DNA of 64,000 bases, taken from the NCBI RefSeq assembly GCF_054482595.1, contig NZ_CM137008.1. One strand, given 5' to 3'. The translations under genes were made by a program, and so were the position numbers. Shown here piece after piece: positions 9,674-58,414 of this stretch. The notes beneath the pieces are model-generated. The model searched no databases. It was not told where the DNA came from and was given only the letters and a program-made list of their open reading frames with translations. The number at the start of each line of letters is the position of its first letter. The stretch's first letter is position 1.

Positions 9674-9744
9674 TTTTTCAATAAGGAATCAGGACAGGGA
9701 TGTTCTTGATGGGGTGAACCAGCTCTGATGCCAAATGCTAAATT

Positions 9745-9824
9745 GCCCGATGCGCTGCGCTTATCGGGCCTACATGTCGCACGAACTATGTAGGCCGGAT
9801 AAGGCGTTCACGCCGCATCCGGCA
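9745..9824. repeat. REP/BIME element (two inverted REP copies) between hycI and ascB
   Basis: gcccgatgcgctgcgcttatcgggcctaca ... tgtaggccggataaggcgttcacgccgcatccggca, the canonical E. coli REP consensus in inverted pair. Confidence 0.85.
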
Positions 9825-14668: not shown

Positions 14669-14820
14669 AAATCTTACAGAACTGTTCTGGCATCAAAGGA
14701 ATTCCCGGAAATATTCGTAGAATACGGAGCGGGCGGTATCGCCGACCTGTGACTGCCGGATGCGACGCTGTCGTGTCCGGCTGGGCGGGTTACGCAATTC
14801 ATGATGGCGGGAATAACTCA

Positions 14821-17073: not shown

Positions 17074-17097
17074 AACGTGTTGCATTTGGACACCATT

Positions 17098-17180
<83 letters not shown>

Positions 17181-23653: not shown

Positions 23654-23686
23654 CCTGTAGGCCTGATGAGCGTAGCGCATCAGGCA
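23654..23686. repeat. REP element between srlD and gutM
   Basis: cctgtaggcctgatgagcgtagcgcatcaggca matches the REP consensus; an adjacent 9-bp-stem hairpin lies at 23701..23723. Confidence 0.75.
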
Positions 23687-23730
23687 TTCTATTAGTCTCA
23701 CGGAGATCCTTAACGGATCTCCGCTGTTAA

Positions 23731-29539: not shown

Positions 29540-29733
29540 TCGTTCGTTATTGATGATAATAGATAATGTGTGCACGGACGGTCCCCTCGCCCCTTTGGGG
29601 AGAGGGTTAGGGTGAGGGGAACAGGCCAGCACTGGCGTGAAAAATTACTCTCACCTCGATCCTCTAACGAATTGGGCCTGCGGGAACATTCTGCACACTC
29701 ATTGACTATTAAATCTGTTTATCAGCAAAACCT

Positions 29734-33949: not shown

Positions 33950-34085
33950 TATTCTCCGTAACTTTCAGCGATGAAGGTATGGAAGAGGTGGCGGTACTAA
34001 CCGCAGGCACCAGGGAGGATAACGTTGCTTTAGCAACGGCCCGAAGGGCGAGCCGCAAGGCGAGTAATCCTCCCGGATGCACCAT
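33950..34085 (+). repeat. tRNA-operon spacer repeat unit A (about 136 nt) ending in a duplicated tRNA-Arg 3' end
   Basis: GC-rich structured segment ...ccgcaggcaccagggaggataacgttgctttagcaacggcccgaagggcgagccgcaaggcgagtaATCCTCCCGGATGCACCAt; last 17 nt identical to the tRNA-Arg 3' terminus. Followed by a 63-nt unit B (34086..34148). Confidence 0.8.
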
Positions 34086-34364: not shown

Positions 34365-34500
34365 TATTCTCCGAAATCTTCAGCAATGAAGATATCGAAG
34401 AGGTAGCGGAATTAACCGCAGGCACCAGGGAGGATAACGTTGCGCCAGCAACGGCCCGAAGGGCGAGCCGCAAGGCGAGTAATCCTCCCGGATGCACCAT
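34365..34500 (+). repeat. tRNA-operon spacer repeat unit A, copy 2
   Basis: Near-identical to 33950..34085, again ending in ...aATCCTCCCGGATGCACCAt; followed by unit B (34501..34562). Confidence 0.8.
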
Positions 34501-34773: not shown

Positions 34774-34919
34774 CTTCTCCAAAAAATTTCCTTCAAAAAT
34801 ATCTCATTTCTAAATAACTACTTTATCCATTTCCTGAATTTTCTTCTCCTTCGCCATCAGCGACAAAATCAAGCAATTACGCTAAAGTAGCGTCATATTT
34901 TTCGACTTGCGAGAAGACC

Positions 34920-37548: not shown

Positions 37549-37621
37549 AAAAAGGCCACTCGTGAGTGGCCAAAATTTCATCTCTGAATTCAGGGATGAT
37601 GATAACAAATGCGCGTCTTTC
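37549..37621 (-). ncRNA. micA: MicA (SraD) small regulatory RNA, about 73 nt
   Basis: Minus strand reads GAAAGACGCGCATTTGTTATCATCATCCCTGAATTCAGAGATGAAATTTTGGCCACTCACGAGTGGCCTTTTT, which I recognise as MicA; ends in its hairpin (37554..37571) plus U-run. Lies between gshA and luxS. Confidence 0.92.
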
Positions 37622-42929: not shown

Positions 42930-44114
42930 TTAATTTGCGGCTTCCTGACGATGAAAACCTCGCCACCAGACCAGTAAGTTAACCAGGGCAATTGTCGCGC
43001 CAGCCAGACAAACGCCAGCCCAACCGCCATGTTGCCAGGCTGAGGCTGAAATTAGCGAACCGGCGGCACCGCCAATAAAGTAGCTGGTCATGTAACCTGC
43101 AGTCAGGCGATTACGCGCATCAGGATGTATTCGATAAATTACCGTCTGGTTAGTGATATGCACGCCCTGTACGGTGAGGTCCAGCACCAGAATGCCGATA
43201 ATCAACGCCAGTACGGAAGTGTGACCAAACCAGATTGCCAGCCATGAAAGTAATAGCAGCAGCAGACCGAAAGTTGTGGTGTGGTGCGATTTGCCCTTGT
43301 CGGCAAAACCGCCCGCCGGACGAGCGCTCAACGCTCCGGCAGCTCCCGCAAGCCCAAACAGACCAATGACACCATCGCTGTAGTTAAAAGGTGGAGCGGC
43401 AAGCAAAAAGGCCATTGAGGTCCAGAGAATGCTGAAGTTGGCAAAGGTCAGGCAGCCCAGCAACGCGCGGGTGCGCAGGATCTTATTGCTGATAAACATA
43501 CTGAAAACGGAACCCAACAACTGTGGGTAATTGAGGTGGGTTTCTGATTTCATTTGTGGCAGACCACGCCATAATGCCAGCGCCATCAGTGCCATTAACA
43601 CCGAGGCAACCCAAAAGACGGTGCGCCAGCCGCCGAGGTTTGCCAGTAACCCGGCAACGGTTCGTGCCAGCAAGATCCCCAACAGCAGACCGCTCATAAT
43701 GGTGCCAACCACTTTGCCGCGTTTGTCCGGTGAAGCCAGCGTCGCTGCCAGTGGAACCAGAATTTGTGCCACGACTGAGAATAAACCGGTTAATGCCGTA
43801 CCGAGGATCATCATCGCCAGCGACTGACTGCTGGCGGTAATCAACATGCCGCATGCCGCCAGTAAGGTCATCGAGACAATCAGGCGGCGGCGTTCAAACA
43901 TATCACCGAGGGGAACAAGAAACAGTAGACCTGCGGCATAGCCCAACTGCGCGGCGGTAACAATAAAGCCTGCCGAACTGGCGGAAAGGGAAAAGTTACG
44001 CGCGATGGTGTCGAGCAATGGCTGGGCGTAATAGTTACTGGCGACCGCCAGACCGGTGGCGATAGACATCAGCACGATCAGCGCCGGGCTAAGCTCATGA
44101 TTAGGTTTAGTCAT
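42930..44114 (-). CDS. ygaY: YgaY, MFS transporter, intact 394-aa reading frame
   Basis: Uninterrupted MFS-like ORF (12 predicted TMS pattern) between ygaZ and proX. Confidence 0.85.
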   Translation of the reverse strand: MTKPNHELSPALIVLMSIATGLAVASNYYAQPLLDTIARNFSLSASSAGFIVTAAQLGYAAGLLFLVPLGDMFERRRLIVSMTLLAACGMLITASSQSLAMMILGTALTGLFSVVAQILVPLAATLASPDKRGKVVGTIMSGLLLGILLARTVAGLLANLGGWRTVFWVASVLMALMALALWRGLPQMKSETHLNYPQLLGSVFSMFISNKILRTRALLGCLTFANFSILWTSMAFLLAAPPFNYSDGVIGLFGLAGAAGALSARPAGGFADKGKSHHTTTFGLLLLLLSWLAIWFGHTSVLALIIGILVLDLTVQGVHITNQTVIYRIHPDARNRLTAGYMTSYFIGGAAGSLISASAWQHGGWAGVCLAGATIALVNLLVWWRGFHRQEAAN

Positions 44115-44213: not shown

Positions 44214-44297
<84 letters not shown>

Positions 44298-44305
44298 AAT
44301 AAAAA

Positions 44306-58177: not shown

Positions 58178-58326
58178 CCTGAATCCTCTCGAAAGTGTGT
58201 CACTTGGGAGAGCGCCCCGACATTTCCCGCGTCGGGTCACGCGTATAATTGTTATTGATTCTTTTTGCCGGAGAGCGGCTCCGCCTTACCCGGCCAACAT
58301 AGATTTCTTCCTGTTCACGTACAGAT

Positions 58327-58401
58327 TGTCGGATGCGGCGTAAACGCCTTATCCGACCTACACTCTCGTAGGCCGGACAAGACGCGTAGCGTCGCCTCCG
58401 G
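58327..58401. repeat. REP/BIME element between gabT and gabP
   Basis: gtcggatgcggcgtaaacgccttatccgacctaca ... gtaggccggacaagacgcgtagcgtcgcctccggca. Confidence 0.85.
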
Positions 58402-58414
58402 CATGGGTGCGGTG

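Follow-up and report, generated by a model that had tools for sequence, protein, structure and literature searches.

REPs, described since the 1980s, are in E. coli imperfect palindromes of 30-37 nt that are extragenic and present in high copy number, carry a mismatch in the stem and a CTAC/GTAG foot, and alternate in orientation when they occur in pairs (Bachellier et al.; Ton-Hoang et al. 2012, PMC3333891). K-12 contains 584 REPs in 4.64 Mb, and variability of REP copy number between strains has already been described (PMC3333891). BIME-1 is defined by Z1 and Y units around a long L linker with an IHF site (PMC3333891), and BIME-2 by inverted Y and Z2 units separated by short linkers, often in tandem arrays. 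REPIN-RAYT systems likewise have inverted doublets, able to form a single long hairpin and variable in copy number between strains (Bertels and Rainey; Nunvar et al. 2010). Finally, the REP325 element of the yjdM-yjdN spacer gives rise to naRNA4 proper (PMC4550694; Rfam RF02564).

Here we analysed a stretch of 64,000 nucleotides (the window) from contig NZ_CM137008.1, assembly GCF_054482595.1, in which the original prediction had placed canonical REPs at five sites on an E. coli-type chromosome. A 1-kb probe around site 1 matched E. coli chromosomes at 100% identity, strain XH990 (NZ_CP019359.1, 1124098-1188097) differed from the window by 3 bases over the full length, and K-12 MG1655 2.788-2.852 Mb, read as its reverse complement, was collinear with the window (98.1% identity) except for one 190-bp insertion. 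Because only 3 differences separate the two, we read the XH990 annotation directly as the gene coordinates of the window. It bears out the gene names given to all five spacers: hycI and ascB converge on site 1 and hypF and norW on site 2; the remaining gene pairs are transcribed leftward, with srlD before gutM (site 3), proX, the last gene of proVWX, before the MFS gene ygaY (site 4), and gabT before gabP (site 5). The spacers had been described as convergent or operon-boundary. This holds for the two convergent spacers and for the operon end at proX, but sites 3 and 5 lie within operons.

To inventory the REPs, we ran a fuzzy search with Y, Z1 and Z2 consensus sequences and an unfiltered, whole-window nhmmer search with a profile built from the units found. 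The consensus seeds agree with the description of the family in PMC3333891. Both scans gave the same nine units at the same five sites (Table 1); the predicted coordinates were right to within 1-3 bases, and no unit had been missed. In the nhmmer search the nine units scored E-values from 2e-12 to 1e-6, and the next matches, at 0.037 and 0.41, were more than four orders of magnitude weaker; given this gap, no canonical REP was overlooked in the window. The density of nine REPs in 64 kb equals the K-12 average.

Table 1. REP units and associated features at the five sites of the window. Hairpin energies are in kcal/mol.
Site	Feature	Position	Strand	E-value	Predicted fold	Remarks
1	Z1 unit (TGCCCGATGCGCTGCGCTTATCGGGCCTAC)	9744..9773	+	2.3e-7	-14.7, z -3.2	71 nt past hycI stop
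1	Tail-to-tail linker, 16 nt	9774..9789				No IHF consensus; most divergent stretch vs K-12
1	Y unit	9790..9824	-	7.5e-12	-21.3, z -5.3	0 mismatches to Y consensus
2	Y unit, downstream of hypF	17097..17131	+	2.3e-12	z -4.9	1 mismatch to Y consensus
2	Z2 unit, downstream of norW	17144..17180	-	1.2e-9	z -2.9	Two stem mismatches
3	Solitary Z1 unit, srlD-gutM spacer	23657..23686	-	1.1e-6	z -4.8	Sense for srl operon mRNA
4	Z2 unit, distal hairpin of proX 3' UTR	44216..44252	-	3.9e-10	z -3.3	
4	Y unit	44265..44298	+	1.7e-8	z -5.2	Degenerate tail CCGA vs CTAC
4	Whole pair, naRNA4 (RF02564) match	44219..44296	-			Strand transcribed from proX; 76.4 vs gathering score 59.5 bits
5	Y unit, gabT-gabP spacer	58327..58361	+	1.3e-11	z -5.9	3 mismatches to Y consensus
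5	Z2 unit	58368..58403	-	8.3e-9	z -3.4	Stem 12 nt past gabT stop
5	Weak candidate for a decayed third REP (TGCCGGAGAGCGGCTCCGCCTTACCCGGCCAACAT)	58266..58300	+	0.41 (whole window), 0.009 (spacer)		

Neither of the two weak matches was counted. The first, at 14753-14768, matches the REP model over its 5' half only and does not make a sixth site. The second, the candidate third REP of site 5, is too decayed, and its fold is not significant (z -1.6). It has the same orientation as the adjoining Y unit, and K-12 has it without any difference; a gabT/gabP haplotype described below (L014) lacks both it and the REP pair.

All nine units are ordinary E. coli REPs, of the Y, Z1 and Z2 types. The signature GCC(G/T)GATG...CATC(C/A)GGCCTAC is visible at all five sites, and the CTAC foot is kept in eight of the nine units. 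The features that TnpA-REP binding requires, the GTAG foot and the stem mismatch (PMC3333891), are likewise present in eight of the nine. The oddities relative to described E. coli REPs are limited to the footless Y unit of site 4 and the doubly mismatched Z2 unit of site 2. Three sites are Y + Z2 pairs of the BIME-2 type: site 2 and site 5 are tail-to-tail, with linkers of 12 and 6 nt, respectively, and site 4 is head-to-head with a 12-nt linker. Inversion and linker length (6-13 nt) are likewise as in BIME-2; unlike the tandem arrays often formed by that class, however, the window sites are single pairs, and it is in other strains that 2-4 tandem pairs occur (two and four at site 2, two at site 4). 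Site 1 shares its Z1 + Y composition and single copy with BIME-1/RIP/RIB elements, but its linker is only 16 nt long and has no IHF consensus. Lacking the L linker, it is an atypical BIME rather than a BIME-1. Site 3 is a lone Z1. The same five sites are known in K-12, where they map, from site 5 to site 1, to 2794027-2794103, 2808132-2808214, 2828560-2828589, ~2835066-2835149 and 2842422-2842502, with unit counts identical to those of the window; the substitutions between the two strains concentrate in the linkers.

The units also fold as REPs should. All nine are predicted to form the canonical bulged hairpin, in which an 8-bp outer stem is followed by a single unpaired position, the inner stem and the loop (-14.7 to -21.6 kcal/mol; z -2.9 to -5.9, n=9). 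Outer-stem pairing reaches 95.8% over the nine units, vs 29-47% in slid controls. Compensatory double changes occur at two pair positions (six cells; for example GCCGGATG/CATCCGGC, GCCTGATG/CATCAGGC, GCCCGATG/CATCGGGC and GTCGGATG/CATCCGAC), and their total was matched by none of 500 shuffles.

Since the elements are located just past stop codons, as terminators are, they could in principle be gene-specific terminator hairpins or chance palindromes outside any repeat family. We consider this reading ruled out, its probability being practically nil. Mean column identity is 79% across nine units from unrelated loci. The Y consensus, with up to three mismatches, was matched three times in the window and in 0 of 100 dinucleotide-preserving shuffles, and the profile E-values point the same way. 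The hairpins lack the U-tract of an intrinsic terminator. Moreover, there are tens of copies per genome: the spacer queries match a median of at least 37 places (at least 40 pieces in 2,322 records), so that related copies are present elsewhere in the genome, as REP identity calls for.

We then related the REPs to the surrounding genes. None of the nine units overlaps a coding sequence, and each site lies 3' of at least one stop codon. REPs occupy 2 of the 5 convergent, 3 of the 27 tandem and none of the 7 divergent spacers of the window. This pattern fits the genome-wide one, in which 207 of the 704 convergent gene pairs bear REPs, as do 146 tandem pairs. The REP stem begins 8 nt past the stop codon of ascB, 10 nt past that of proX, where the complement of the site 4 Y unit is the first hairpin of the 3' UTR, and 12 nt past that of gabT; at the other flanks the distance is 21-71 nt. 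The three short distances presumably fit a mechanism of ribosome stalling and tmRNA action by which, as Liang, Rudd and Deutscher reportedly found in 2015, a REP less than about 15 nt from a stop codon lowers translation. Two further features of these spacers and their genes deserve mention. Just upstream of the site 3 REP, 3 nt past the srlD stop, lies a perfect 10-bp stem-loop (23696-23727; CGGAGATCC-TTAAC-GGATCTCCG), which together with the REP makes two consecutive hairpins at the srlD-gutM junction. The ygaY gene (42930-44114) is here an intact gene for a 394-aa MFS transporter; the K-12 copy is annotated as a pseudogene.

The REPs had also been proposed to mark mRNA 3' ends. We compared them with published K-12 Term-seq data (Adams et al. 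2021, PMC7815308), taking 3 as the cut-off for the intrinsic-terminator score. No intrinsic-terminator-like site was found in any of the five REP spacers. At two sites an RNA 3' end coincides with a REP. The 'primary' 3' end of proX, at K-12 2808169 (+), is listed twice in the curated table; the printed flanking sequence puts it between the Y and Z2 units of site 4, 5 nt beyond the foot of the hairpin nearer to proX (PMC7815308). Another end, 2828590 (+), directly adjoins the srlD-gutM REP on its downstream side, 31 nt upstream of gutM; it has a Rho score of 1.91, lies inside a region of significant Rho-dependent termination, and has an intrinsic-terminator score of 1.5. Searching by gene name and coordinate prefix, we found no Term-seq 3' end listed at hycI/ascB, hypF/norW or gabT/gabP (PMC7815308). 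The marker role is supported at proX and srlD but finds no counterpart in the listed ends of the other three sites. Expression of their operons is probably low in LB and in M63 glucose, and they may simply have been silent in the conditions used, so that the function of sites 1, 2 and 5 is inferred.

A 3' end at the foot of a hairpin is compatible with either termination or trimming. Dar and Sorek 2018 and Harris et al. 2026 offer a model in which 3' exonucleases are halted by REP hairpins, and in which these hairpins can also bring about partial, Rho-dependent attenuation; according to Harris et al. 2026, REP effects depend on context, and mRNA half-life is not uniformly lengthened. The proX and srlD data fit this model, and by analogy sites 1, 2 and 5 would behave in the same way. 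We hold, with high confidence, that these are ordinary REPs whose transcribed hairpins would fix and protect the 3' ends of upstream mRNAs, with partial Rho attenuation at some sites.

A hairpin that resembles these elements lies in the hydN-hypF spacer (14750-14782; CTGCCGGATGCGACGCTGTCGTGTCCGGCTG). Its 5' half is identical to that of a Z2 REP, and the profile match covers model positions 2-17 only. A K-12 Term-seq end (2837453; 55,806 reads) lies ~9 nt past it. Whether as the relic of a REP or as an attenuator of separate origin, the hairpin may be read either way.

A different view would give the elements mainly a role at the DNA level, as gyrase (BIME-2), IHF (BIME-1) or HU/naRNA-linked nucleoid anchors, and the original prediction had indeed named gyrase and IHF sites. 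Gyrase binding is documented for only a subset of BIME-2, in which cleavage by the enzyme is enriched and favours Y units (PMC6379681), and sites 2, 4 and 5 have the BIME-2 composition. The named gyrase sites, sucC-sucB and tldD-yhdP, however, house multiple cleavage sites each (PMC6379681), whereas the window sites are single pairs. The gene names of the five REP sites were not found among the entries listed in the supplement of Sutormin et al. (PMC6379681). For IHF, the core consensus WATCAANNNNTTR is absent from all five sites; its single match in the window, at 34867, is far from any REP. As the sole Z1 + Y pair also lacks the L linker, there is no BIME-1 among the sites, and the IHF claim is unsupported.

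As to naRNA4, the site 4 pair scores above the Rfam gathering threshold (Table 1), and the other sites reach 34-52 bits, below it. Site 4 aligns with naRNA4/REP325 end to end, with the same arrangement of two hairpins (anti-Y + Z2), and in both cases the strand is the one that transcription of the upstream gene would copy into RNA. Site 4 is, however, a different locus and has one pair, not six. The match is accounted for by the anti-Y + Z2 build common to BIME-2, which identifies no distinct gene, and it reflects shared BIME-2 ancestry rather than a gene for an HU-binding RNA. Against a nucleoid function, Harris et al. 2026 observed neither measurable compaction by REP325/naRNA4 nor long-range contacts between REPs. 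Taken as the principal explanation, a DNA-level role seems to us decidedly unlikely.

To see how the sites vary between strains, we compared 5,426 complete E. coli genomes. Percentages given below as approximate come from rows sampled evenly down the match ranking, and for expanded alleles the number of REPs was checked in those of 625, 819 and 691 bp only. At site 1, about half of the genomes (3,075, at 80% cover or more) resemble the window; the REP count is 1 or 2, with some strains keeping one REP. Site 2 has two units in ~52% of sampled rows and is expanded in ~34%, with four and eight units in the cases checked. The units of these tandem amplifications are near-identical within the locus. 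Site 3 is fixed: 5,405 of 5,412 genomes have a single piece of 504-505 bp. Site 4 has two units in ~62% and four in ~28%, and the pair of site 5 is present in 4,056 of 5,425 genomes.

The remaining alleles of these sites have no REP pair. At site 2, ~14% of sampled rows have no unit, and at site 5 the remaining ~25% have a box-C-like element and no REP; in these minority strains (haplotypes L011 at hypF/norW and L014 at gabT/gabP) the REPs are replaced by another G+C-rich palindromic repeat, of the CCCTCGCCCTTTGGGCGAGGG / CCCTCACCCTAACCCTCTCCCC type. At site 4, ~10% carry an unrelated segment of ~350 bp in place of the pair (L013). The occurrence of REP-less strains at sites 2, 4 and 5 means that the elements are dispensable there. 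REP copy number had been put forward as a strain marker. Four sites do vary, but srlD/gutM does not, and since K-12 and the window strain have identical copy numbers the marker separates more distant lineages only.

The hycI-ascB spacer (9674-9743; loci L005-L008) is, in addition, a hot spot of presence and absence. In many strains, what separates hycI from the REPs includes a 251-aa ORF without a Pfam match and/or a HigB/HigA-like pair (HTH_3). The window retains 32 bp, at 9697-9728, that match the 3' end of the 251-aa ORF at 87.5% identity, which suggests a deletion in the window lineage and in K-12.

This variation bears on the view that the elements are purely selfish or neutral, REPIN-type sequences, mobilised and amplified by a RAYT and tolerated in 3' spacers only for the harmlessness of insertions there, with any effect on RNA 3' ends incidental. 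At four of the five sites the REPs vary and can be dispensed with, with 0, 2, 4 or 8 units and an unrelated element in some strains, and the tandem amplification at hypF/norW is the pattern that Ton-Hoang et al. link to TnpA-REP recombination (PMC3333891). The tail-to-tail pairs are, moreover, predicted to form an alternative, REPIN-like hairpin spanning both units (-43 to -47 kcal/mol; -47 kcal/mol on either strand at site 2). In contrast to the REPIN-RAYT systems, the RAYT gene lies outside the window, and the mobility of the pairs is a presumed one. A purely selfish origin also fits poorly with the structural fixation of the srlD-gutM REP, the mapping of RNA 3' ends to the foot of a REP at proX and srlD, and the genome-wide expression bias of gene pairs that contain REPs. 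We regard it as possible but doubtful as a full account, although it and a role at 3' ends are not mutually exclusive.

The mechanism that we favour, in which REP hairpins define 3' ends, runs as follows. REPs are non-autonomous palindromic repeats, which a single-copy TnpA-REP (RAYT) encoded outside the window would spread and amplify locally, and they persist only in spacers 3' of genes. There, a transcribed unit folds into a stable bulged hairpin without a U-tract, which would block 3'->5' exonucleases and thus fix and protect the upstream mRNA at its 3' end. In places, Rho would in addition attenuate part of the read-through to the next gene, and between convergent genes one palindrome could serve both transcripts. 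Of these steps, the blocking of exonucleases, the action of Rho at sites other than srlD-gutM and the RAYT-driven change in copy number are drawn by analogy from the literature, whereas the present analysis itself shows what the elements are, how they fold, where they lie, how they vary between strains and that two of them coincide with published K-12 RNA 3' ends.

Other repeats and RNA elements occur nearby. The 190-bp insertion relative to K-12 lies in the recA-recX spacer (29544-29733) and contains a G+C-rich palindromic repeat (core GGTCCCCTCGCCCCTTTGGGGAGAGGGTTAGGGTGAGGGG) that we take to be 'box C'-like; the insertion is full-length in 1,632 of 5,426 genomes, and the core is found at a median of 6 places per genome. 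Rfam finds MicA at 37550-37621, and two spacers of the serV-argVYZQ tRNA cluster (33957-34084 and 34373-34499) match RtT at 29 and 27 bits, below its gathering score of 45.

The finding of five REP sites was itself already known, and it has little significance beyond annotation: the spacers deserve the label of REP/BIME 3'-UTR elements, not of terminators or IHF sites. The length polymorphism of 0, 2, 4 or 8 units at four of them could serve as a simple lineage marker. Rather more speculative, and in our judgement very unlikely, is the idea that REP/BIME sites are not stable landmarks but slots in which unrelated repeat families take each other's place; the same applies to the separate idea that a stable naRNA4-like RNA could be released from the proX 3' UTR. 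If such swaps altered 3'-end formation and the read-through to norW, gabP or ygaY, they would make the haplotypes naturally occurring alleles of regulation. In any case, the variants described here provide natural alleles for testing whether REPs act as terminators and stabilisers at once, as has recently been proposed.
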